DNA from: Zootoca vivipara
Taxonomy: Eukaryota
Assembly (NCBI RefSeq): GCF_963506605.1
Contig: NC_083287.1
Coordinates: forward strand, 57,722,001-57,786,000
Reading direction: 5' to 3'
DNA: 64,000 nucleotides
In this document: positions 13,904-58,193 of the stretch, one piece after another
Layout: the number at the start of each line of letters is the position of its first letter
How positions within the stretch are numbered: position 1 is the first letter of the stretch
Program-made: the position numbers and the translations under genes
Notes under the pieces: generated by a model
The model's input: only the letters and a program-made list of their open reading frames with translations
Databases searched by the model: none
What the model was told of the DNA's origin: nothing

Positions 13904-16900
13904 TCATGCGTTTGCCTCAGCAACTTTGTTTGATGTCATCCTAGGATGGCCTTGATTCTTCTCTGCCATCTTCTTCTCAATCATGGAGAGCAATTCCTCG
14001 GCTTGGGCTGCAAGCTCGTCTCCTGTTTCATTGTTGTTGAAACTGCAAAACCGTCCGTCACACTGATCCCTCAGTTCCTGAAAGTTTTTGTTGTCCGTGG
14101 AAGATATGTAATCTTCCAATCTTTCATTCCGCAACCTTTCTTTGTGGCTGAAGACAACCACCATGCATTGGTCGCTACTGTTGAATGTCTTCCTCACCCG
14201 CTGAACCACCTGGTGGTCTTCCTCTGTGAATCGGCCCACTGGGACGACCAGAACCAGAGCATGGGGACGGGGCTTGGAGAGACGTAGGCAGTGCTCAATC
14301 TCAGTAGAATTTTTGGGTCCATCAGAGTCAAAAATCGCAGGCGTGTCAATGACAACTACCCTCTTCCCGTTCCACTCTCTTATTCCTAACTGGCAAGACT
14401 TTGTAACTGGGGTCATTTCAAGCCTGGAGTCAAACCTCTTTCCCCCAAGGATGGTGTTCCCGGTCGCGCTTTTGCCAACCCCGGACTTTCCGACAATGAC
14501 GATGCAAAGCTCGGACTCCTCTTGCTCTGCTGAAACGGGATCAGCTGCATCTGTTAATGTCGTTGGAAAAAGAAGATCAGAACTGAGGAGTCCTAAAGCT
14601 TCTCATGGGGATCAGCACTTAAACTTTGCACTGGTTAGAGCCCTTGTAAGGCTCACTTTTGCAACCTGAATTTCCTGAACTGCCCAAGCAGTTAACTACA
14701 GAATGGGATGCAGAAAGCTCAGTCTATCTCTTTATTACAGCACGACACAGTTGCTAGTAATTCAAATGTTAAAGTTCTCTCTTTTGTTCTGTATGGTACT
14801 ATTTTATACCGTATATTTGGGCAAAGATTCTGTTTTTTTTTAAATTCATTTTTATTGATTTTTCTGTATATACATCAGCAAAAATGAGAAAGGCACACAG
14901 ATTCTGTTTGAGTATTGGTCATGGACCGTAATAAAGAGACTGACTGATTGACTGAATGCAGGAAGCGGATTTTGAACCGTGCAATTCATTCTTGCTGTTT
15001 TGAATTTCATTGTGTTATTCTCTTCCTTAGTAGGTGGTGCAAACAACTATTCTGAATTATGTTTTTTGTGGGTTGGGGAAGGAGGCATGGGGAATGAGTT
15101 TACAGAACCAAGAGAGCAGTGGCCCAAACCCAGGAATTTAAACTGTGCCTGGAAACAAACCTGATGCTGGTGTGAGTTGCTCTCTTTAATGTCTAATGTT
15201 CTACAGTTGTTTATGTGCTATAAGCCGGCGAGAGTGGCTGGGGAAACCATAACGAAATACTACTACTACTACTACTAGGGACGTGGGTGGCACTGTGGGT
15301 TAAATCACAGAGCCTAGGGCTTGCTGATCAGAAGGTCGGCGGTTCAAATCCCCGCGACGGGGTGAGCTCCCGTTGCTTGGTCCCAGCTCCTGCCAACCTA
15401 GCAGTTCGAAAGCACGTCAAAAATGCAAGTAGATAAATAGGAACCGCTACAGTGGGAAGGTAAACGGCGTTTCCATGTGCTGCTCTGGTTTGCCAGAAGC
15501 GGCTTTGTCATGCTGGCCACATGACCTGGAAGCTGTACACCGGCTCCCTTGGCCAGTAAAGCGAGATGAGCGCCGCAACCCCAGAGTCGTCTGCGACTGG
15601 ACCTAATGGTCAGGGGTCCCTTTAACTTTACTACTACGGTACTACTAATTTCAAAACACTGCTCAATGTCATTCCTTGCAGTTCCCTCCAGGGCTGCTAG
15701 ATGTCACTCTGAGACAGAACATGATTATCACAGACTTTTCCCTTCCACCCCCTTGCAGTCCTGTTTTCAAGGGTTCAAAAGTGTTTTGCACATCGAGTGT
15801 GCGCTTATATATTGCCAAAAAGGAGAGAAACGAGGAAGTGGGCTGGCATAAGAGGTAGATTTGGAGAGCATCTATTGTATGGGAAGTAAATTTGCTATTT
15901 AAAAAAACAAAAAAACCCCAAAACTTTACACCCATACAGCAGGGCTGAACGCAGCTGAACCCGGAAAGAAACTTTGCCATGAGTGCTTACTTTGAACAGG
16001 GGGGCTCTCTCCTCCCCCCACTCCGGACCCCTCAGTTCCTGGAATCTCCACGGCCTCCTGCGGCCTCTCTTCCTCTGGCGGGCGCACAGAAAGGTCCTTT
16101 TCGTTTAGGATCAAGGTAGGACTTCCAACCATTTCAGGCCTGCAGAAGGGCTTCTCCTTGTTCTGCTCCACCATGTCCTTCACCAAGGAGAGCAGTTTCT
16201 CAGCCTGCATCTCCCTCTCGTTTTGGTTGTCGTTGTCGACCGAGCACCACTGGAAATTGCGTTGGTATTCTGGGCGGGAAAGATGTTCCTCCCAAGCTGC
16301 GCTGTCCAGTTTCCCCCCAGTGAGCACGACAATTGTGTACTTCATGGCTTCGCAGCCAAATATCTCCTGAACCCACTCTATTGCCTTATCGTCCGCATTG
16401 TCACAGTGGTGCGTGACCAGCAACAAAGCGTGCGGTCCTGGTCTGGATAGACGGAGGCAGTGCTGGGAGTCAGGGGAATCTTTGGCTTTGCCGCTCCCAA
16501 GGTCAAAATTAGCAGGTGTGTCAATGAGGACTAGCCGCCTTCCCTCCCAGTCCCCGATTCCTAACTGGCAGGATCTCGTCACGGTGCCAACCTCAAATGT
16601 CTCCTCTCCAAGAATCGTGTTTCCCGTTGCACTTTTTCCTGCTCCTGGTTTCCCCACGAGGACAATCCGCACTTCTTCGCTGTCTGTCGGAATCTGGTTC
16701 TCAGGCTTTGATGCTGTTGAGGAAAGTTCAGATATTAGAGGGTGCAACGAAGGTTGTGTAGGAAACCAGTGCATTCATTGATATTGGGGGTTTGCACGGG
16801 GTGCTTTGCCTGTAGTTTTGAAGGAGGGGTCCTAGGCTGGGGACCCCCTAAGTTATATCTTGTAAGCAGAGACGGAAGGAGTTCACCTGTTTTGCAATAA

Positions 16901-33239: not shown

Positions 33240-35888
33240 ATGGCCAAAGGTGAGTCTTTTCCTGATAGTGACCATCATGAGGTAGTAAAACAAAGGCTGC
33301 ATGGTTTGCTTAAGACTTCAAGATGGCAGAGGCAGGAGAAGGATGAACCCAGGGGAAACGCAGAATGGGAACCTCCAATATTTCTCCAATGAAAATAGGG
33401 ACATCCTATTCAACAACAACAACAACAACAATTTTATTATTTATACCCCACCCATCAGAATGGGTTGCCCCAGCTACTCTGGGCGGCTTCCAACATATAT
33501 AAAAAACATAATAAAACATTTAAAAACTTTCCTATACTGGGCTGCCTTCAGATGTCTTCTAAAGGTTGTATAGTAACTTATCTCCTTGGCTCGGGGGTCA
33601 CATAACTCCAGACCCTCCTACGTTTCTTTGATGATAATAGGGACGTCCTAAGGCAAAGCGGGACATTTTGGGATCACATCAGAAACTGGAGGGTCTGTGG
33701 GAAGGGGACAATCCCAGAGAGGGGTCTCCAGTAGTGGGGAGAGAGTCAGGGAATAGTAATGAGGAGAGGAAGAGGCAAGCACCCCTTGAACTCTTATCCA
33801 TGCACTCCCCATAGCAGGATTGTCCCCTTTCCCCACCGCTCATGCCAGCTTCTTCTGGGCAGAAGGATGTGCATCATAGCTGCCAAGTTTTCCCTTTTCT
33901 CGCGAGGAAGCCTATTCAGCATAAGGGAAAATCCCTTAAAATAAGGGATAACTTGGCAGCTATGATGTGCATGGAAGGGAGACCGTCTCTGTGCACTCAG
34001 AGGAGGAACAGGGGCAAATCTTGGAGATGCCACTCGCACCCCCTTGATCAAGAAGGAGTGAGAAACGCAGACAGCAGAGGGGGCGACACCTAGGAAGGAG
34101 CAGTGAGCGCCCGAGAAAATGCTCCTTGTCTATATGCATTGCCTGAAATGCCAAAGCTTTCTCTCAATAAAAGTTAATGGGAAACTTCCAGCAAGTCTTG
34201 GCTCAATTCCAGGAGGGCAGGACATGCACGGCCACCACAAATCTCTGGAGTGCTACTTATGGCTTCAAGGTGGCCACAAACATGTCTTCTTCTTGGATCA
34301 TGCTGAGGGTAAAAACTGTGGCCAGGGTGCCCCCTGGAAGGATCCATCCAGACACATTTTCTCGACACTGGCAAGAGAAATAGGGGTAGGAAATTCCCCT
34401 TGTACCGTGGAACCTCGGTTTTTTAACGAAATGAGTTTCGGAAGACCGTTTCAGTCCCAAAACATTTGAAAACTGAAAACTCAATACAGAAGCCTCAATA
34501 CAATAGCGAAACTCAAAACAGAAGCCTTGCAGCATGCTCAACTTCCGAAAAGTGTTTGAAAACCGAAGCATTTATTTCCGGGTTTACGGCGTCCGAGTTC
34601 TGAAACGTTTGTCAACAGAGATGTTCGAAAACAGAGGTTCCATTGTAGCTTTAATAGAATCACAGCGTTGCAGAGTTGGAAGGGACCCCAAGGGTCATCT
34701 AATAATAATAATAATTTAATATTAATTTATTACTTCTACCCCACCCATTTGCCCGGGGGGGGGGCAGCCACTCTGGGTGGCTTCCAACGGAATATTAAAA
34801 ACATTATAAAATATCAAACATTAAAAACTTCCCTAAACAGGGCTGCCTTCAGATGTCTTCTAAAAGTCAGGTTGTTGTTTATTAATCTAGTCTGATCCCC
34901 TGCAATACAGGAATCACAACTACAACACCCGTGGCACATAGTGTATTTTAATGTTTTAATGTTCCTGCTGGAAGCCGCCCAGAGTGGTTGGGGAAACCCA
35001 GCCAGATGGGTGGGGTATAAATAATAAATTGAAACTTCCTGTTCCATTTCCCTGTTGAGCAGCTCTTGGCATCAGAAAGTTCTTCTTAGTCAGAATCGCC
35101 TTTCTTGTTAAAAAAAAAAAGTAGGTAACTAATAAGTAGCACACCTATGAAACATTTGTAAGCCTTTTTTTTTTTTTGCTAGTCTCAGGAACTTTGCTGA
35201 CATGGCATTTTTTATCTCTTGTTTAGCCAGACCAGATGAAGAATTGAGAATTCTGCTCATTGGAAAAACAGGATCTGGGAAGAGCACAACAGGAAACACC
35301 ATCCTGGGGACTAAAGAATTTACAAGCACATGTAATCCTGGTTCAACAACCCAGGACTCCAAAAGAAAAGATGCCACTGTAGGTGGCAGGAGAATTGCTG
35401 TTGTTGACACACCTGGGTTCTTTGATACAAAAAGTAATAAATGCTTCACACCAGAAGAGCTGAAGAAGTGCGTTAATATGGTCTATCCTGGATTTCACGC
35501 CATCGTCGTTGTGGTAAAAACGGGCAAGATCACAACGGAGGACCAGGAAACATTTCGGAAAGTGAAAAGCTTCTTCAAGGATGAAGGAAAGAAGTATTTG
35601 ATTCTTTTATTCACCTTTAAAGATCAGTTAGATATGGAGGGTTCAACTATAGAGAAGTTCTTAACAGGTGTTGACGGGCACCTGAAGGATCTGATTCAGA
35701 TGTCCAAAGGACGATTCATTGCTTTTAACAATGTGGCTGGTGGAAAAGAAAAGCAGAGTCAGGTGGAGAAGCTCATTGAGATGATTGATGAGATGGTGGC
35801 AATCAATGGCAGTACAAATCTGTACACTGTGGAAAAATCCGAAAAGGACAACTCTTGGGGGAGTTGGCTTAAGTCTTTCCTTTTTTAA
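33240..35888 (+). CDS. GIMAP: GIMAP-family GTPase, single AIG1 domain; join(33240..33249,35227..35888), 223 aa
   Basis: Motifs GKTGSGKSTTGNTILG, DTPG, YPGFHA, TFKDQL, FNN. Mini-exon ATGGCCAAAG|GTGAG (phase 1) fits acceptor TTTAG|CC; total 672 nt. Confidence 0.9.
33875..33964. mobile_element. 90-bp hAT MITE
   Basis: TIR CATAGCTGCCAAGTT; TSD ATGTGCAT. Confidence 0.9.
34405..34645. mobile_element. Tigger/pogo-like MITE
   Basis: TA|CCGTGGAACCTCGGTT...GAGGTTCCATTG|TA. Confidence 0.75.
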
Positions 35889-37520: not shown

Positions 37521-40500
37521 TGTTATGTACTGAGCTGAATCCTAGAACAATAGGATTCAGAATCAGCGGGAGCTACCCAATCCAACTCCAGGTGGAAGTG
37601 AATCCGCAACCTGATTGGCCTGCTGGAGCAGCCAATCAGGCGGCTGGCAGAAGTGAATCTGCTACCTGATTGGCCTGTAGGAGCAGCCAATCAGGCTGCA
37701 GGCAGAAGTCAATCCACAATATAATTGGCCCACAGGTGTAGCCCTGAAGTAGCCAATCACGCAAGGCCCATTGTGTAAATAATGTATATAAGCAGATGGT
37801 TTTGGGAAAAGAGCCATTCGTCTTCTCTTCTCCTCCTTGATGACTATGAGCTGAATTAAGAGCATGAAATTCACTCTTGACTCCGAGTATATTTCACTGG
37901 CGACGAAGGTGGGATCCTGCTGAGCTGACCGCCACCACGCACTGCACCGCAGCACCGCCACCTGCTGCACCGCTGCATCGCACCGTGCATCCAGGCTTCA
38001 GCTCCAGGACCCAAGGAACCCAGAATGGCAACTGACAGCAGCTTCTCGCCATTCAAACCAGCATCAGGAGACTGGGAAGGGTACGCCACCCGTTTCAACT
38101 TCCTCCTGCAAGCGAAAGAAGTCACCAACGATGCCATGAAGAGGGCAACATTCTTCAGCGTCTGTGGAGAGGAGACGTTTGAAATCGCCCGGGCTCTCCT
38201 TGCACCTAGAGATGTCGCTACCGTCTCTTACAAAACAATAATGGAACGGCTGAAGGAGCACTTCTCACCACAGCCCTCGGTGGTAGCTTGCCGAAATGCC
38301 TTCTACGCAAAGCGGCAAGCCCCGGGGGAAACCATAACTGGGTTTGTGACCTCCCTCCGCCAAGCCGCCCGGTTATGCAACTTCTCAGAATTGGAGAACA
38401 TGCTTCGTGACCACCTCGTCGGTGGCCTGAGGGACGAGATGTTGCAACGGCGCCTCTACGCCAAAAAAGACCTCACGTTCCAGATTGCTCTGGAGGAAGC
38501 CCTGGCAACCGAAGCCGCCGAGAGGTCAACGCAAGAGGCACGACCGGCCCCGCCATCCCAACCGAGGGTCTACCACGAAGACCTCACCGACGAATCCGAA
38601 TCTGACAGGGAGGAAGTACACCGAGTACAGCGGCGCACTCAAGCAGCACACACACCACAGCAGCCTCGACGAGAAGGAGGGAACTGTGCAAGCTGCGGGG
38701 AGAACCACGAGAGGAGGACCTGTCGTTTCCGCAACGCAGAGTGCAGGCAGTGCAGAAAATTGGGACACATCGCCCGGGTGTGTCGGGCTCGACTCACCCG
38801 TCGACAAGCATCAGATGACCGACCCAGGAGCCCCAGGTCACACGGCACCATGCACCAAGGCAACTCGACGGAGATCACGGACTACCAGGTATTCCAGTTG
38901 CCCCATCCCAGCACAGAGAAAATTTATATAGAGGTACAGATAGAGGGAGCCCCATGCCGCATGGAGCTGGACACGGGTTCAACTCTATCCATAATCTCGG
39001 CCCGAACATTAAGGGAACTGTGCCCTAATGGGGGCCCCAAACTAAGGCCGGCCCCATTCACCCTCCGGGACTTCCAGAAACGTAAGGTCCCTACAATGGG
39101 GGTGGGGACCTTCAGGGTGCAATATCGAGGGCGAAAGCAACAATTGGACTTGCTGGTAGTTAAGGGCCCCTACGTTAGCTTACTGGGACTGGCATGGTTT
39201 GGACCTCTGGGGCTAGCCGTTACCGGGGTGAACCGCACTAGCTTACAAGTGGACGTGGACGCCATATGCAAAGAGTTTCCAGGGGTTTTCGATGGGGCAT
39301 TGGGACGATATACAGGACCCCCCATTGCCCTACAGCTAGACCCCGCTGTACGACCCATCAGGCACAAGGCCCGCCGGGTCCCGTTCGCCCTGAAACCCCG
39401 CATAGACGAGGAATTGGACCGGCTCGTGGAGCAAGGAGTGCTGGAGCCGGTGCCCAACGCCCCCTGGGAAACTCCAATTGTCACACCCGTCAAGCCTAAC
39501 GGTTCGGTCCGCATCTGTGCAGACTACAAATGCACCATAAACAAGGCTCTCACGGCCCATGCATACCCAGTGCCAGTGGTCAGCCATGTCCTCGCCACCC
39601 TGGCTGGGTCAAAAAATCTTTGGCAAACTGGACTTGGCCCAAGCGTATCAACAGTTGCCTGTGGACGAAGCCACAGCAGAGGCTCAGACGATTGTGACGC
39701 ACAGAGGGGCATTCAGAGTAAAGCGGCTGCAATTTGGCGTTAGCGTGGCACCAGGCATATTCCAGAATCTAATGGACTCTCTCCTTAAAGGGATTCCTGG
39801 CGTCACCCCCTTCTTCGATGATGTACTGATCGCCGGGCCCACACCAGAGGAATTTGAGGACCGCCTCCGCTCCGTCCTGCACCGTTTCCAGACGGCGGGC
39901 CTCAAGGTGAAGCGGGAAAAGTGTTTACTGGGAGTGCCGCAGGTGGACTTTCTGGGATTTAAGGTGGACGCAGAAGGGGTCCATCCAACCGGTGACAAGG
40001 TACGGGCCATTTGTGAGGCCCCAGCGCCCAAGAGCAAGCCCGAACTTCAGTCATTCTTGGGACTATTGAACTTTTACCATGCCTTCCTTCCCCATAAGGC
40101 AGCGGTAGCGGAGCCCCTACACAGACTCCTAGATAAAAGGGCCCCTTGGGTGTGGGGCCAGCGACAAAGGGCCGCATTCCAGGCAGTCAAGGACTTGCTC
40201 GTCTCGAACTCGGTCTTAGCACACTTCGACGAGAGGCTGCCAGTGGTGCTGGCATGCGACGCCTCTCCCTATGGCATCGGCGCTGTCCTGGGACACCAAC
40301 TCCCGGATGGAAGAGAGGTGCCGGTGGCATACTTCTCCCAGACGCTTGCTGCAGCCGAACGAAACTACTCACAGATTGACAAGGAGGGTCTGGCAATCGT
40401 GAAGGGCGTAAAAAAATTCCATGATTTCTTGTACGGGCGGCCCTTTACCATAGTGACTGACCACAAGCCGTTGCTTGGCCTGTTTGCCCCTGAGAAGCAG

Positions 40501-42482
40501 ACCCCCCAAGTGTTGTCTCCACGTGTCCTCAGGTGGTCAATTTTCCTTGCCGGCTACCAGTATGCACTAATCCACCGCCCTGGGAAGGCGATGGGCCACG
40601 CAGACGCCCTCAGCAGGCTACCACTACCAGAAACAGGCCCCGACCCAGCGCCTGCGCAAGAGGTTATGACCCTGGAGCTGCTTCCCGACCGACCCATTCA
40701 GGCACAAGAAGTTGCGCACCATTCCACAAAAGATAGGGTCATCTCCCGGGTCCTGGACTGGGTGTGGCGAGGATGGCCCAGCAGCAGCCCCGGGCCAGAA
40801 TTCGCTGGCTACACAAACCGCAAACATGAACTGTCGGCCCACAAGGGGTGCCTGTTATGGGGAAGCAGGGTTGTTGTTCCCCAGCCCCTCCGCAAAAGGG
40901 TCCTCACAGCCCTACACGAGACACACCCAGGGGTAGTGAGGATGAAGGCCCTTGCCAGGAGTTATGTGTGGTGGCCGGGGATTGACAGAGAGATAGAGGC
41001 CTGGGTCCAACACTGCCAGACCTGCCAAGAATCCCGCCCGGATCCCCCAAGGGCCCCAGTCCAGCCCTGGGAGTCCGCCCGACATCCATGGTCACGCTTG
41101 CACGTGGACTTCGCTGGCCCCTTCCAGGGAAAAACATTCTTCATAGTGGTGGATTCCTACACCAAATGGCTGGAGGTTGCACTGGTACCATCCACTGCTA
41201 CGGCGGCAGCCATCCGGGTACTCCGTAAGCTGTTTGCGACCCACGGGCTCCCTGACACCCTCGTCTCGGACAATGGAACCGCATTCACGTCAGAGGAGTT
41301 CCAGACCTTCACAGCGCAGAACGCCATCCGCCACATCCGCTCAGCACCATTCCACCCTGCCACCAATGGCCAAGCGGAGCGCATGGTGCGGACCACCAAG
41401 GACAGCCTCCGCCGCATGACACAAGGGGACTGGGAATACCGCCTTGCCGCATTTCTTCTAGCACAGCACAGCACCCCAAGCACAACGACGGGCCGGAGCC
41501 CAGCTGAATTACTAATGGGCCGGCGCCTTGCAACTAGACTGGACCGACTTCACCCCGACAGAGCTCAGGATGAGGTAGTGGTGGGGAAAGGCAGGAACCC
41601 CCGGACATTTGTGGCCCAGGACCCAGTGTATGCAAAGAATTTTGGGGCAGGCCCAGCATGGGTACCCGCCACAGTCACCAAGGTGACCGGTCCCGTGTCG
41701 TACGAGGTACTAACGGAAGGGGGGCAATGTTGGCGCCGCCACTGTGACCAGCTACGGCGACGATTCCCAGGAGGAACCCGGGAGGAGAGCGGGACAGAGG
41801 GGTCCCAAGGGGACAGCAGGGCAGTGAGGCCTGTAGAGCGAGAGGGGTGGGCAGGGGAAGCAGAAGCAGTAGGCACAGAGGGGCGCCCCGAGGCTGGAAG
41901 GACACCGGAACCAGAGCTACAACCTAGTGGTTCAGTGGCGCCAGACCAGACAGCCCTGGCACAGCCAGCAGCCTCGGAACACGAGCCAGAACCAGAACCC
42001 CTGACCAAGGAACACCCCAGGCCACAATGCACACGGAGGCGGCCAGCAGACCTTGGGGACTACGAATGCAACTTCCCGGGCAGGACTGGAACTTAGAGGG
42101 GAGGGGTGTTATGTACTGAGCTGAATCCTAGAACAATAGGATTCAGAATCAGCGGGAGCTACCCAATCCAACTCCAGGTGGAAGTGAATCCGCAACCTGA
42201 TTGGCCTGCTGGAGCAGCCAATCAGGCGGCTGGCAGAAGTGAATCTGCTACCTGATTGGCCTGTAGGAGCAGCCAATCAGGCTGCAGGCAGAAGTCAATC
42301 CACAATATAATTGGCCCACAGGTGTAGCCCTGAAGTAGCCAATCACACAAGGCCCATTGTGTAAATAATGTATATAAGCAGATGGTTTGGGGAAAAGAGC
42401 CATTCGTCTTCTCTTCTCCTCCTTGATGACTATGAGCTGAATAAAGAGCATGAAATTCACTCTTGACTCCGAGTATATTTCA
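37521..42482 (+). mobile_element. Ty3/Gypsy (Mag-like) LTR retrotransposon, full length
   Basis: 376-bp TG..CA LTRs (37521-37896 and 42107-42482, 3 differences). TSD TGCCC. PBS TGGCGACGAAGGTGGGAT (37898-37915) is complementary to the tRNA-Ser(GCU) 3' end. PPT at 42095-42106. Confidence 0.98.
38025..42096 (+). CDS. Gypsy gag-pol polyprotein (Zn knuckles, protease, RT, RNase H, integrase); one frameshift at 39611-39616
   Basis: CASCGENH..C and CRQCRKLGHIARVC knuckles, LDTGS protease, RT FFDD, RNase H CDASPYG..TDHKPL, integrase HETH..CQTC and D..SDNG..ER. Confidence 0.92.
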
Positions 42483-45135: not shown

Positions 45136-45590
45136 ATTATTATTCTCATTGTTATTATTAGGAAGCTCACAAGGTCCTGCCTGGAGGCTTGCAACATAAA
45201 AAACTAGGCACGCCAAAGGGTGGATGCTCAGGGACTCCTGGATTCTTGGCCAGCTGTCACCTTCCTTTTGCTCTGCTTTTCATGACCGTTTTATCAGAGA
45301 CCCACCGTCATGAAGTCTTGCTTAACCCTCCCAATTCACTTTTCTCCTTTTCCCTCCCAAGCAAGTGATGTTCTTCTAAACAGCTTGCCTCCCCCAGTCC
45401 CAAGCCTCCGCGGGAGGAGAGCGATCCCCGCAGAGGCTTAGGATGGAAGCTGCGCTTGCCTTTTCTCTAAGCTGAACAGCGCCCCACGCGGCCACCCATC
45501 GCGCAAGCCAGCTGCTAGTTCTCCAAGCAGCCACTAGGGGGAACTCTTGCCCTGCTCATTCCAAGCAGAAGAGAACCTCATTCAGCTGCT

Positions 45591-45709
45591 ACTTTCATTT
45601 TCCCTTCGGAGAAGCAGCTCTTCGCTCGCTCCCGTTCACGGCAGGAAAATTCAAAACGGCGTGGAAGACGACGCGGGACGAAGGAGGATCTGCAGAAGCA
45701 GCTGAGGAG
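45591..45709 (+). promoter_or_regulatory. ISRE-like element and candidate non-coding first exon of the third GIMAP
   Basis: ACTTTCATTTTC (45591-45602) in a small CpG-rich patch; donor GAG|GTGAGG at 45710. Confidence 0.5.
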
Positions 45710-46918
45710 GTGAGGCAGAGTGGTGGAGAGGAGGAGGGAGAAAGGGATCTCGTTGCAAGAGGACCCGGGAGACGCCCTTGTCTCGCTTGCAGCCCTTGGC
45801 ATTGGCAGCCTCTCTGCGCTCATGGGCGCACCTTCCTCGCTCAGAAGGAGCTCCGTTCAATAGGTCCAGGCATACTAGGCTGGGCTCATGGCATCAAAGC
45901 TTCCTAGGGTGGCAGCAGCAGCTGTGTTTAGCCTGTTGCAAGAAAAGGCAAGGAAGAAGGATCCTTGCAGAGGATCTTTAAAGGCTGACCGACCGACTGT
46001 GGCTTAAGAGGGTGCCAAACTGGGGCTTCTCTTAATAGGAGCAGGCGGGGTTGGACACTGTGGTCTTTTTGGCGCTTGCTGAAATTATTCCTTACCCTCC
46101 CACATTTTCCTGATGAAAATAGGGTCCGTCCTGCTCCATAATATGATTAATAATTTTATTACTTGTACACACCTGACTTTGTGGCCCCAGACACTCTGGG
46201 TGGCTTCCAACATGTATATAAAAGCAGAAGCAAACATTAAACAGCTTCCCTATCCAGGGCTGCCTTCAGATGTCTTCCATAGGTTGTCTAGTTACTTCTA
46301 TCCTTGGCTCGTGGGTTCCATAACTCCATGCCTCCAACATTTCTCCGATGGTAATAGGGGCATCCTGAACCTGGATGTCCCTATTGGTTAGAGCCAGGGG
46401 TGCAGGTTCGATCCCCATATGGGACAGCTGCATATTTCTGTATTGCCAAGGGGTTAGACTAGATGACTCTTGGGGTCCCTTCCCACTCTACAATTCTATG
46501 ATTCTATTAATCTAAGGAAAAGCGGGACATTCTGGGATCAAATCTGAAACCGAGGTGGCTTTAAATCTGGGACTGTCCCTGGAAAATAGGGACACTTGGA
46601 AGGCCTGTGAATCTTCTTTAGACAAGCTTATTCAGATGCTTAGAAAGCTGATGAGACTTTTAATCTGTTCCTAGCTCTTGTCATTTTAACTTTTTAACGC
46701 AGCTTTTAAGTCATCATTAATTCTTCTTAATGGCGTTGTTTGTTTGTTTTTGCAAACTGCTTTGAGGTTCTTTTTTTTTTACAATCAAGGAGTGCATATT
46801 TTTATGAAATGAATAAATTAAGCAAACGCTCTACCAGAATATAAATTTTATTATTTGAACCCCACCCATCTGACTGGGTTTCCACAGCTACTCTGGGCAG
46901 CTTCCAAAAGATCTAAGC

Positions 46919-47540
46919 CAGCGTTTCTCAACCGCTGTTCTGCGGCACACTACTGTGCCGTGAGACGCTGGCTGGTGTGCCGCGGCGTGCGGCTTGTTTC
47001 CCGGGCAACGGCAAACCCTCACCAGCCGGAAGCCTCGGCTCAAGGCTCGCGAGAGCGCAAACCTGGCTGACGAGAGAAAGCTCCACTTCCGCCACCCCCG
47101 CACGCCGTTGAGGGAAAGGGAGCCAGAGAAAGGACTACAGTTCCCAGGGGCTCCTTTCGGGCAACTGTTCTCGCCGCTTGCTCTCGCGAGATGGCCCAGC
47201 GCCGCTCTGTTCCCCAACCCCACCTCTCGCAAGTTCGCGCTCGCTTGCGGCGCGGTGGTTGAATGTGGGGCGGTGGCGGCGGTGGCAGCGCGCTCCGCTG
47301 CCTCGTCGTCTCCTCCGACGGAGCTGTCCTTGTCGCCGTTCGTCCGGAAGCTCCGTAAGTGGTGGATCCTCCGAAGCCCCTCTCCCTTTCAGGCTAGCGG
47401 AGACGAGCGCGCTGGAGCTGCAGCCGCTGCTTCTAGGGGCGCCGGAATGAGCGGCAGAGGGGAACTTTCTTCCAGGTGTGCCGCGTGATTTTTTTCATGT
47501 AACAAGTGTGCCTTGGCCCAAAAAAGGTTGAGAAACACTG
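46919..47540. mobile_element. 622-bp hAT non-autonomous element with CpG-island-like cargo
   Basis: TIR CAGCGTTTCTCAACC...GGTTGAGAAACACTG; TSD ATCTAAGC/ATCTAAAC; inserted in an L2 3' remnant. Confidence 0.85.
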
Positions 47541-47958
47541 ATCTAAACACATAATAAAACATCAAATGTTAAAAACTTCCCAATAGAGTCATATAAAGCC
47601 TTAGATGTTTAAACTGATGTTTGCCAGGTGCTCCCTTCAGGGTGAGGAGGGTTGTTCTTCTGTTCACAATATGTGAAAATAATATTTGAAATAAATAATA
47701 ATAACATTTTTCATTGAATCCTGCGTATGTGCCACCTGACAAAAGAGCCAGAGCGCTTGGGCACAGTCCAGTGGGCATTTCCTTTCGCATTGCTTGCAAA
47801 ATATTCTGGACATTTTTATTACTGAAATGTGCTGTTTCTCACTTGATTTGCCACATGTCTGAACTAGAGGTGGGTGTCTGGGTGGGTGGGCTGGCTTTGC
47901 AGGTGGAAGGCTGCCTGAGACTCTCATCTTGATTTCTTGCCATTTTTTTCAGGGGAAG

Positions 47959-48275
47959 ATGGGCAGGACCAGAGGAGGTAAGGAAGGGTTCAAGTGACTC
48001 AGAGGCCAATGGACTGCTTGGGGTCGGGTGGATTATTCTAAATATATTTTGCAAGAGTTTTTCGCAGCACCCCCACCGACATTTATTTTATTTATTTGCA
48101 AAAATTATTGTTACACCAATATGTAATACTTTTTTTTTAAAAAAAATCAAAGTGGTTTTCAGCAAAAAAATATAAAAGAGTACAATAAGCACCACAACAA
48201 AGAGAGTTAAAAACAGACATCAATGAACCATTGTGGAAGGGTGTGTTCTTAATTGCCTGCATAAGCCTGTCAGGA

Positions 48276-48312
<37 letters not shown>

Positions 48313-50555
48313 CTGCCCATCTGGCTGGGTTTCCCCAGCCACTCTGGGCTGCTCCCAACAGAATACTATTATTATTAATAATACAGCGATAAAACTTCAA
48401 GCATTAAAAACTTCCCTAAACAGGGTTGCCTTCTATAAGTCTGAGGGTTTTTTTATTACCTTGACATCTGATGGGAGGGCGGTTCAGCAGGTGTTCAAAA
48501 GTTGGCTCAGACGGCACCAGCTGAATCTCCAGTGGTAAGGAGTTCCACAGGACTGGGCCGATGATACCAGAAGCTCAGACATGATGCCCACCCTTCCACT
48601 CTTCTCTTCCTCGGATTTTGGGAGGTGGGAGGTGCCTGGGTGGGATGCCATCCTGACGCACATCTGCAAGAACCTAGAAAGATGCCCTTGGCTGCATCAG
48701 GACACTGGTTCGCTCAGCTCATCCTTGCCTGCAGTGGCCAAAGCTTGGATAGTTAATTTGTAAAAGGAACTAGTTCAAGTTCAAGATGCCCCCAGAGGAA
48801 CGAATTCTACTTCACAGTTGTCCTGTTATGAAACAAACTTGTTTGGTTCATGCTCAGTTACAAGCTGCTGTGCAGAATTATGAAACATACTTGCATAACT
48901 GTTTATACCAATGGTCCTCTCAAACTATTTATAGTTTCTTGGTTAGCCAGTCATTTTAATAATTGTTGTTTTTATGTGCCCTGAGATCTGTGGATGAGGG
49001 ACAGTATAATAATAATAATAATAATACTGTAATCACACGTTGTGTGATATTTTACATGAGTTGGTGCTATATAAACACACAAACAAACACACACACTTCT
49101 GTTTTACAATTTAAAATACTAATTTTAACATCCTGAAAATATCAATGATTTCCCTTCTCTTTCCATGTTTCCTTTAAACCATTCAGTATTCCATTATTGC
49201 ATCCATCAAAACTTATTTACACTGTTGAATCTATCAGGTGTACACAATTATTTCCCATATATTCAATAAACATTTCCCAACCTGTTCTTCTTCTGCTTTT
49301 ATTTATACATATGTATAAGCTGAGCCTAGGGCTTGCCGATCACTGAGCCTAGGGCTTGCCGATCAGAAGGTCGGCCGTTCGAATCCCCGCGACAGGGTGA
49401 GCTCCCGTTGCTCGGTCCCAGCTCCTGCCCACCTAGCAGTTTGAAAGCAAGTCAAAGTGCAAGTAGATAAATAGGTACCGCTCCGGTGGGAAGGTAAATG
49501 GCATTTCCGTGTGCTGCCCTCGTTTCCCAGATGTGGCTTTGTCATGCTGGCCAATAACGCGAGATGAGCGCTGCAACCCCAGAGTCAGTCACAACTGGAC
49601 CTAATGGTCAGGAGTCCCTTTATCTTTACCTTTACGCTTTACATATGCATTCAGTCTCTGTGAGGATCAGAAAACCAGGTAATTCTCAACACTCACACAT
49701 TAAGAGGGATCCCACTAGAAGTGGTTGCTCTGATATGTTTGCTGACCAGATCTTCGCTGTCTTTCAAAACCCGCAGGAAATCAAGAACTGAGGATCGCCC
49801 TTGTGGGCAAGACTGGAGGCGGCAAAAGCGCCACAGGAAACACCATTCTTGGCCAGAAGCTCTTTGATTCGAAACTTCAGGCCAGGACAACCACCTTGGC
49901 CTGCCAAAAGGCGTCTTGCATTTGGAGAGGCTATGCCGTGTCCGTGATTGACACAGCGGATATTTTGGGCACAGGAGCTTGCGATGAAAGGCTGGACCAG
50001 GAGACCAAGCGTTGCCTCGACCTCTCTCAGCCTGGCCCTCACGCGCTTGTGTTTGTGACCCAAGTGGGCCGCTTCACCGCGGAGGACAAGGAGGCAGCCC
50101 AGCGAGTCCGGGACATGTTTGGGACGGAGGCCATGAAGCACACCATCCTCTTGTTCACCCGCAAAGAAGCCTTAGAAGGCAACTCTTTGCAGGATTACGT
50201 GATGCAGTCAGAGAATGAGGCTCTCCGGAAGCTGGTCCAAGAATGTGGGGGGCGCTTCTGTGCTTTTGATAACAGGGCGGCAATAGGAGAACGAGATGAC
50301 CAGGTCTCCGAGCTGATGGAGATGGTCATGAAGATGGTCCAGGGGAATGCAAGGCCATACCTGGAGACGCCCATCATGGAGGCAGCGCTTGGATATTACA
50401 TGGCAGGAGGCAGGAAAAGGGCCAAGGGAGAGGGGAAAGGGAAAGCTCGCAAGGGTTTCAGCTACAGAACAATATTTCTCGTCCTGTGTGTGTTTGGTAC
50501 AGGGCTTTACTTTCTCTCTCGATTTCTCCCCATTAGCAGAGCTGGGGATTTTTAA
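47959..50555 (+). CDS. GIMAP: GIMAP-family GTPase with C-terminal transmembrane anchor (GIMAP1/5-like architecture); join(47959..47977,49777..50555), 265 aa
   Basis: Motifs GKTGGGKSATGNTILG, DTAD, PGPHALVFVTQVGRFT, TRKEA, FDN; hydrophobic tail TIFLVLCVFGTGLYFL. Phase-1 GAG|GTAAG donor matches CCGCAG|GA acceptor; AATAAA at ~50805. Confidence 0.92.
49320..49635 (+). mobile_element. Sauria SINE, 5'-truncated, with a 23-bp duplicated 5' end
   Basis: CTGAGCCTAGGGCTTGCCGATCA twice, then SINE body and TTTACC tail. Confidence 0.88.
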
Positions 50556-57422: not shown

Positions 57423-58193
57423 ATGGGGGACTCCCCCACCCCGGGGGATCCAATGAAAGAAGGTGGTTGGTCAAGGGAGCTGTGGGCTCGAACAGGTTGA
57501 AAAGCGCTTCTCTGACGTGATCTTTCTAATTCACAGGGGAGAAGGAAGAATCAGAATTGTGTATCGTCCTTCTTGGCAAGGCTGGCGTGGGAAAAAGTGC
57601 CACAGGGAACACCCTCCTCGGACGGGAGAGATTTCGCTCAGCTTTTTCAGCAAAGCCAACAACTCAGAAGGTTGAGAAGGAGAGTGGGGAATTTGAGGGC
57701 CAGAAGTTTTCTGTGATTGACCCGCCCACTGTCTCTAGTTCAGAATCTAGTTCACTGTCTCTAGTTCAGAATCTCTCGCAAAACACAAGCAAAACACAAG
57801 CGAGGGATCAAAAAACCCTGCAAGTCCAGTCCTTATGTTCTGGTCTTTGTGATCACCGTGGGCTGTTTCACTCTGGAAGACAAGAAAACTGCTAAAAAGG
57901 TCAAGAAGGTGTTTGGGAAGAATTTCGGGAAGCGCGTGGTTGTCTTGTTCACCCACAAAGAGGATTTGAAAGGTGAATCCTTGGAGGGCTATGTGGAGAA
58001 GTCCGAAAATGAGGCGCTCCTGAAACTGGTTAAGGATTGTAGGAATCACTACTTTGCTTTGAATAACAAGGCAGCTGGAGAAGAGAAGGAGGAGGTTTCC
58101 AGGCTGATGGAAAATCTCCAGCAGATGCTTCCCGAGGATGGATCAGGGCCCTGCAGAGAAAAAGGGAAAGAGGGAGAAAGGGGAAAGAATTGA
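57423..58193 (+). pseudogene. GIMAP: GIMAP pseudogene; join(57423..57462,57537..58193) with frameshift
   Basis: ELCIVLLGKAGVGKSATGNTLLG and VGCFTLED..FTHKEDL..LNN lie in different frames. 26-bp and 11-bp duplications at 57727-57800 explain the shift. Confidence 0.88.

Follow-up and report, generated by a model that had tools for sequence, protein, structure and literature searches.

A hAT-type element with the RTTN promoter and first exon in a GIMAP intron of the lizard Zootoca vivipara

The stretch of DNA analysed here, called the window, measures 64,000 nucleotides and comes from contig NC_083287.1 of Zootoca vivipara. It holds a GIMAP cluster. One GIMAP gene has a native non-coding first exon, an exon with the start codon and a main coding exon (Table 1). 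The native junction was seen in run X20 (4 reads), X21 (2 reads), X22 (14 reads) and X1 (one contig). Further GIMAP-like open reading frames lie at 13904-16774, 35151-35888 and 57530-58193, the last of which is split over two frames. Just before the 5' end of the native exon, at 45590-45603, the window reads TACTTTCATTTTCC, presumably an interferon-response-like element. The two long overlapping gag/pol-type frames at 37929-42096 have repeats on both sides. This is apparently a young LTR retrotransposon, which we take to be Gypsy-like.

Intron 1 of this gene contains a 622-bp element at 46919-47540. Because the native exon ends at 45709 and splices to 47954, the element is intronic. The preliminary description of this DNA had placed a splice acceptor at 47953, about 410 bp from the element. 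That acceptor is used in RNA and is 413 bp away from the end of the element.

Table 1 Features of the GIMAP locus and of the element inserted in it (positions in the window).
Feature	Positions	Strand	Evidence or remark
Native non-coding first GIMAP exon	45618..45709	+	Junction 45709->47954 in 4/4 runs; X1 contig starts at 45618; 5' end approximate
Old repeat tail, cut in two by the element	46840..46918, resuming 47549-47590	+	Collinear with unsplit copy 48291-48423
Left TSD ATCTAAGC	46911..46918	+	Partner at 47541-47548, 7/8 match
Left arm of parent hAT MITE	46919..46988	+	15-bp TIR 46919-46933; the 70 bp recur in L052-L062, the empty parents
Captured RTTN 5' end: promoter, exon 1, start of intron 1	46989..47475	+	L021, which has no TIR, matches at 94.5% (495 columns)
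Second CGCG core CTCGCGAG	47046..47053	+	Present in host RTTN too
ETS/GABP-type motif CACTTCCG	47084..47091	+	Present in host RTTN too
ZNF143/THAP11-type motif ACTACAGTTCCCA	47134..47146	+	Host RTTN has ACTACAGCTCCCA
CGCG element / BANP motif TCTCGCGAGA	47182..47191	.	Sequence; PMC6192621
GC box GGGGCGG	47267..47273	+	Host RTTN now GGGGCAG
RTTN coding exon 1, 24 codons + 1 base	47282..47354	+	ATG -> GTG in the GIMAP-intron copy
RTTN exon 1 donor GTAAGT, phase 1	47355..47360	+	Joins exon 2 in frame at host; fits annotated lacertid RTTN proteins
Right arm of parent MITE	47476..47540	+	TIR at 47526-47540
Right TSD ATCTAAAC	47541..47548	+	Read from sequence
GIMAP start-codon exon, ATG 47959	47954..47977	+	Sequence and RNA junctions
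GIMAP main coding exon, AIG1 domain	49777..50555	+	PF04548 E 9e-68; junction 47977->49777 in X22 and X1 (2/4 runs)

The element is delimited by 15-bp terminal inverted repeats (TIRs), CAGCGTTTCTCAACC and CAGTGTTTCTCAACC, which match at 14 of 15 positions. Together with the target site duplication (TSD) this agrees with the hAT-type ends that had been noticed earlier. The surrounding old repeat tail, which we take to be L2-like, continues on the far side of the element. Both parts line up collinearly with an unsplit copy, so the element is a true insertion. Short TIRs that start with CAG and an 8-bp TSD are the pattern of hAT elements. We take the ends to be those of a Charlie-type hAT MITE, with which they have in common both the CAG start and the central TA of the TSD; the hAT label used here describes these ends. 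The element also has the other marks of a hAT MITE, as it is without transposase coding capacity and belongs to a high-copy parent family.

Between parent-MITE arms of 70 bp and 65 bp sits a cargo of 487 bp. The interior (46990-47470) has a GC content of 0.66 and a CpG observed/expected ratio of 0.98, compared with 0.44 for the window as a whole. This bears out its earlier description as CpG-island-like. The reported motifs are likewise all in place: the ETS, ZNF143/THAP11 and BANP motifs, the near copy of the last, the GC box and the donor CC/GTAAGT. We take CACTTCCG to be an ETS/GABP site, and ACTACAGTTCCCA presumably binds ZNF143/THAP11. In 20000 dinucleotide shuffles, the three main motifs appeared singly in 503, 1 and 55 cases, and jointly in 0. 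The motifs had been picked after the fact, so this test overstates the case, and the decisive evidence is the source locus.

A search of the genome with the interior gave 47 candidates, of which 40 were scored. Of these, 21 are near full-length matches (95-100%), 5 have a deletion (92-94%) and 14 are partial (87-89%). One match differs in kind. L021, on the minus strand of another contig (G000:C8:52614491-52614974), spans exactly the interior at 94.5% identity and has no TIR. No TIRs of the element's family were found in 90 kb around it, and it is the sole CpG-island window in those 90 kb.

The RTTN_N profile (PF14726) has one match in the genome, 2.3 kb downstream of the L021 island. At this host locus a 73-base exon ends at the donor in phase 1 and reads in frame into RTTN exon 2. 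The joined peptide is the start of the annotated Zootoca vivipara rotatin, P0174. The end of the exon-1 peptide, LSPxxRKL, is common to squamates and mammals, and the host locus continues collinearly past every cargo end. Taken together, the island match, the downstream profile, the in-frame exon 2 and the start of P0174 mean that the cargo consists of the RTTN promoter, coding exon 1, its donor and 120 bp of intron 1.

RTTN sequence accounts fully for the interior of the 622-bp element. This rules out an interior made of the 5' region or transposase gene of an autonomous hAT. At the level of sequence, a hAT MITE is shown to have captured a host promoter of housekeeping type with its first exon and donor. 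The preliminary description had proposed just such a capture, resembling those by Pack-MULEs, and a search with the interior has recovered both the single host-gene 5' end and 25 transposon copies. The exon-like tract seen before the donor proved to be a coding exon, with its ATG reading GTG at 47282. An out-of-frame ATG persists at 47263.

These 25 copies are called family A, and they come from inspecting the best 30 of the 40 scored matches. Nineteen are about 622 bp long, five about 560 bp, and one (L019) is 1486 bp. Both TIRs are found by a strict pattern in 22 of the 25. The TSDs of these 22 are perfect in 19 cases and match at 7/8 in 3; nearly all are different, and most have a central TA. 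The element thus has internal sequence in the 100-5000 bp range between both ends of one TIR element, a parental host copy (L021) of at least 90% identity that is not flanked by the element, and multicopy spread with distinct TSDs at sites on many contigs. It is a multicopy Pack-TIR.

The empty parent MITE is 420-590 bp long and has an internal inverted repeat. It is itself a carrier of host DNA: in the copy at L052:1298-1858, about 155 bp come from a coding exon of DNAH10, along with its GC donor. This dynein piece matches DNAH10 in the PDB (9fqr, E 3.5e-11). The TIR-less source exon with its GC donor lies at G000:C17:3508745-3508906 (L100:6745-6906) and matches the parent piece at 153/162 positions. 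A search with the DNAH10 exon gave 892 candidates, of which 40 were scored, all 99-100% alike. Searches with the parent MITE gave 892-1192 candidates, with 40 scored each. The DNAH10-bearing parent is thus a Pack-hAT too, and one of very high copy number.

The 1486-bp L019 is a basal form of the family. Where the parent has the left half of its inverted repeat, L019 has a 113-bp stretch together with about 950 bp from the RTTN locus, and 340 bp of the parent MITE are retained. The RTTN part covers host positions beyond the short cargo on either side and takes in intron repeats that run on in the host. The 113-bp stretch (L019:1208-1327), which separates the RTTN cargo from the left arm, matches nothing in the genome but itself. 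The 622-bp form is shorter than L019 by 292 bp on its left side and by 571 bp on its right, a loss that includes the DNAH10 piece. L019 also retains one host base that is missing from the short form. The capture junctions have just 1-4 bases of shared sequence.

A plausible series of events can be proposed. The parent MITE would have acquired about 950 bp from the 5' end of RTTN, replacing the left half of its inverted repeat. The uptake was likely a templated repair of a break at the hairpin. Internal deletions may then have stripped the DNAH10 exon and the cargo edges, giving the 622-bp and 560-bp forms, which a transposase acting in trans could have spread.

RTTN sequence is also carried by other elements. 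Seventeen copies (L039-L049, L067-L072), called family B, have ends CACAGGTGTCAAAC and are 2-4 kb long; their cargo is about 325 bp from this RTTN region. Perfect 8-bp TSDs were found in 10 of the 11 inspected. Three further loci with other ends, L064, L065 and L066 (the last without set bounds), carry this second cargo too and share one chimeric junction with family B. L064 and L065 have ends CAGGGCCGG, with a TSD of 7/8 in L065 and none that is clear in L064. This makes 20 copies in three elements other than family A. The total is about 45 RTTN-cargo copies in transposons (25 + 20).

Some family B copies and their surroundings hold other material. The vicinity of L044:4310-4390 has a second promoter-like patch (CACTTCCG, GC box, CCAAT). 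L045 contains a nested LINE piece, and B-type elements have further mosaic content. A MITE of 138 bp lies at L046:7972-8109; its TIRs are related and its 8-bp TSD is perfect.

The second cargo differs from the host by 19 changes in 317 columns, 11 of them transversions, with 39 CpGs against 40. The family A cargo shows 6 differences from the host in 324 columns. Residue 8 is Ala in the second cargo, as in Lacerta agilis, and Ser in the host and family A. A tree of the cargos, which took 41 of the 46 rows (the cut pattern failed for the other five), separates host and A from B, C and D with support 100/99, a bootstrap value that is not fully settled.

Two other sources for the second cargo were considered and rejected. 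Descent from family A conflicts with this 100/99 branch, with the host states that the second cargo keeps at A-derived sites, and with the RTTN intron sequence that L064 has past the family A capture end (C8:52613912-52614002). An RTTN paralogue conflicts with the single PF14726 match in the genome and the single non-transposon match in the cargo searches. Judged by sequence comparison, the second cargo is likely an independent capture, making two in all. It would be a separate and likely older event, after which the cargo was handed among three other elements.

A more far-reaching idea is that the RTTN cassette is a favoured cargo. It would have been captured twice and passed among four hAT-type chassis since its methyl-sensitive activator sites help to keep copies open and mobile. 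It would then be a housekeeping promoter on the move, from which chimeric transcripts start at part of the roughly 45 sites, GIMAP in carriers included. The diverged cargo would have changed while it was a live promoter, and possibly did so in a different lizard lineage. If that last part were true, a host promoter would have moved between species. We regard this combination as doubtful.

What we consider probable is more modest. The element is one of 25 non-autonomous hAT-type copies that bear the promoter of RTTN along with its coding exon 1 and donor; it lies in GIMAP intron 1, where it is likely methylated and is spliced out. Each copy is predicted to be an exon trap made of a promoter plus a donor, and host methylation likely keeps most of them off, the GIMAP-intron copy included.

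The signature of this is CpG decay. In the cargo of 19 family A copies there are 88 transitions on 106 CpG bases, versus 16 on 216 other C/G bases. This 11-fold excess indicates that family A is likely methylated. In the GIMAP-intron copy 4 of its 7 own changes are CpG transitions, where about 14% would be expected without methylation (rough p 0.008, a figure that leaves out one shared subfamily site). Against silencing, this copy has only 2 CpG transitions in the cargo versus a mean of 4.6, and its four motifs and donor are all kept. CpG decay, moreover, speaks for methylation in the germ line and not in somatic tissue. For promoters with CGCG elements, activity is described as abolished by methylation (in the results given in PMC6192621). 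The least CpG-skewed changes, 5 CpG transitions and 7 others, are those of L018 (G000:C7:63523140-63523620), a candidate unmethylated copy.

The element had been put forward earlier as a constitutive alternative promoter of the GIMAP gene. In carriers of the insertion, the RTTN promoter would fire and its donor would splice to 47954, giving a second 5' exon beside the native one. The layout would allow it: the cargo is in sense orientation, 599 bp lie between the donor and an acceptor in use, and all motifs and the donor are intact. The RTTN ATG, which after splicing to the 47954 acceptor would not be in frame with that of GIMAP, has been lost, which leaves a cleaner 5' UTR, and the same design works in bats, in the NUBPL-bearing HelibatN3 described in PMC4778049.

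The RNA data point the other way. The native exon splices over the element in 4/4 runs. A 47354->47954 junction is absent among the 15 joints listed of 31 (the other 16 are weaker), which derive from about 6% of each of three raw runs with a floor of 3 reads. RNA depth on the captured exon at GIMAP is 0-3. The loss of the ATG is also less telling than it looks, given that an out-of-frame ATG is left at 47263. The change to GTG is shared with L008 and part of family B, so it need not reflect selection at GIMAP, and we do not accept it as such. With the CpG decay added, the constitutive promoter was not borne out, and we think it improbable. As for the two signs by which the proposed function was to be judged, spliced reads are indeed missing from the joints listed, in shallow data from animals not established as carriers, and methylation is pointed to by the germ-line decay. 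GIMAP reads differ from the assembly (12/486 letters in X1), so the sampled animals may lack the insertion.

Some RNA does come from the family. X22 has about 150 sense reads over 46941-47198 that differ in ten letters from the GIMAP-intron copy and thin out before the exon. Among the 19 aligned family A copies the best match has 6 of these 10 letters. These reads are likely read-through into a family copy absent from the assembly. Since they come from another copy, not every family A copy is untranscribed. A weak search for annotated fusions of the RTTN exon-1 peptide with the protein of a different gene found none: 1 of the 153 candidates matched, and this was rotatin itself.

The copy might also alter GIMAP output without being its promoter: the insert could behave like an intronic enhancer, seed methylation or offer a weak cryptic donor. 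In favour of this, the CpG island measures 490 bp, contains four activator motifs and lies 1.2 kb downstream of the native first exon, and CGCG elements are described as acting in both directions (in the part of PMC6192621 that deals with them). The normal GIMAP splicing seen in RNA argues against it, and we give it little credence.

That the interior was the transposon's own promoter region, from which the RTTN promoter derived, would fit a count of about 45 transposon-borne copies against one that is not, and it has practically no chance, refuted as it is by a TIR-less and collinear host, in-frame exons 1 and 2 and an annotated rotatin whose N-terminal motif squamates have in common with mammals. 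On the evidence so far, the RTTN-bearing copy at GIMAP is likely a passenger, and promoter function is likely absent.

Pack-TIRs of animals have been surveyed by Tan et al. (2021, PMC8277862). In that survey's figures there are 370 of them, with four multicopy families (1.4%) and none in anoCar2, the sole lizard included. The hAT case it pictures has three copies; its hAT example is Pack-hAT-N8_XT, with 291 bp of the CAPSL 5' UTR. Chimeric transcription with neighbouring sequence is given for at least 30% of Pack-TIRs and is not required. Published multicopy animal Pack-TIRs are these four families and Ssk-FB4. Family A is like the surveyed cases in having TIR arms, an unlinked TIR-less parent, distinct TSDs and a GC-rich cargo. 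The lizard families differ from them, as the survey describes them, in copy number (25 + 20) and in carrying a whole promoter-exon-donor unit. Moreover, the parent already counts as a Pack element and has hundreds of copies, and a single locus was likely captured two times. The unique-top-hit filter outlined by Tan et al. would likely miss such families.

The closest design is found in bats. The cargo of HelibatN3 is the promoter of NUBPL with six codons and a donor, and chimeric transcripts are driven from it (Grabundzija et al. 2016, PMC4778049). In the account given there, this activity was shown in HeLa cells and bat transcriptomes. Both it and the lizard element are amplified units of a promoter, N-terminal codons and a donor that could trap downstream exons. 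HelibatN3 however is a rolling-circle Helitron without TIR or TSD, whereas the lizard element is of the cut-and-paste hAT type and shows CpG decay. The ends of a Helitron (5' TC, 3' hairpin-CTAG, no TSD) are not what is seen here, where TIRs and 8-bp TSDs are present.

Plant Pack-MULE and Pack-TYPE elements, as characterised in PMC8277862, are similar to the lizard element in being non-autonomous TIR elements with GC-rich fragments, serial capture and many copies. The vertebrate host, the hAT-type ends and the CpG-island promoter cargo set the lizard element apart from them. No paper on the RTTN-cargo family was found in the literature searched; the parent MITE may be catalogued in Repbase or Dfam, which are outside the scope of this work.

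Multicopy gene capture by cut-and-paste transposons has been reported as rare in animals, and vertebrate mobile promoter-donor units are known mainly from bat Helitrons. In this lizard a coding exon (DNAH10) has multiplied into hundreds of copies, and the RTTN promoter was likely taken twice. The families are young, and the full capture series persists in one genome: the parent, the long form and two short forms. This means that the capture mechanism, the state of a CpG island after transposition and the rate at which host genes are rewired are all directly testable in a single species.
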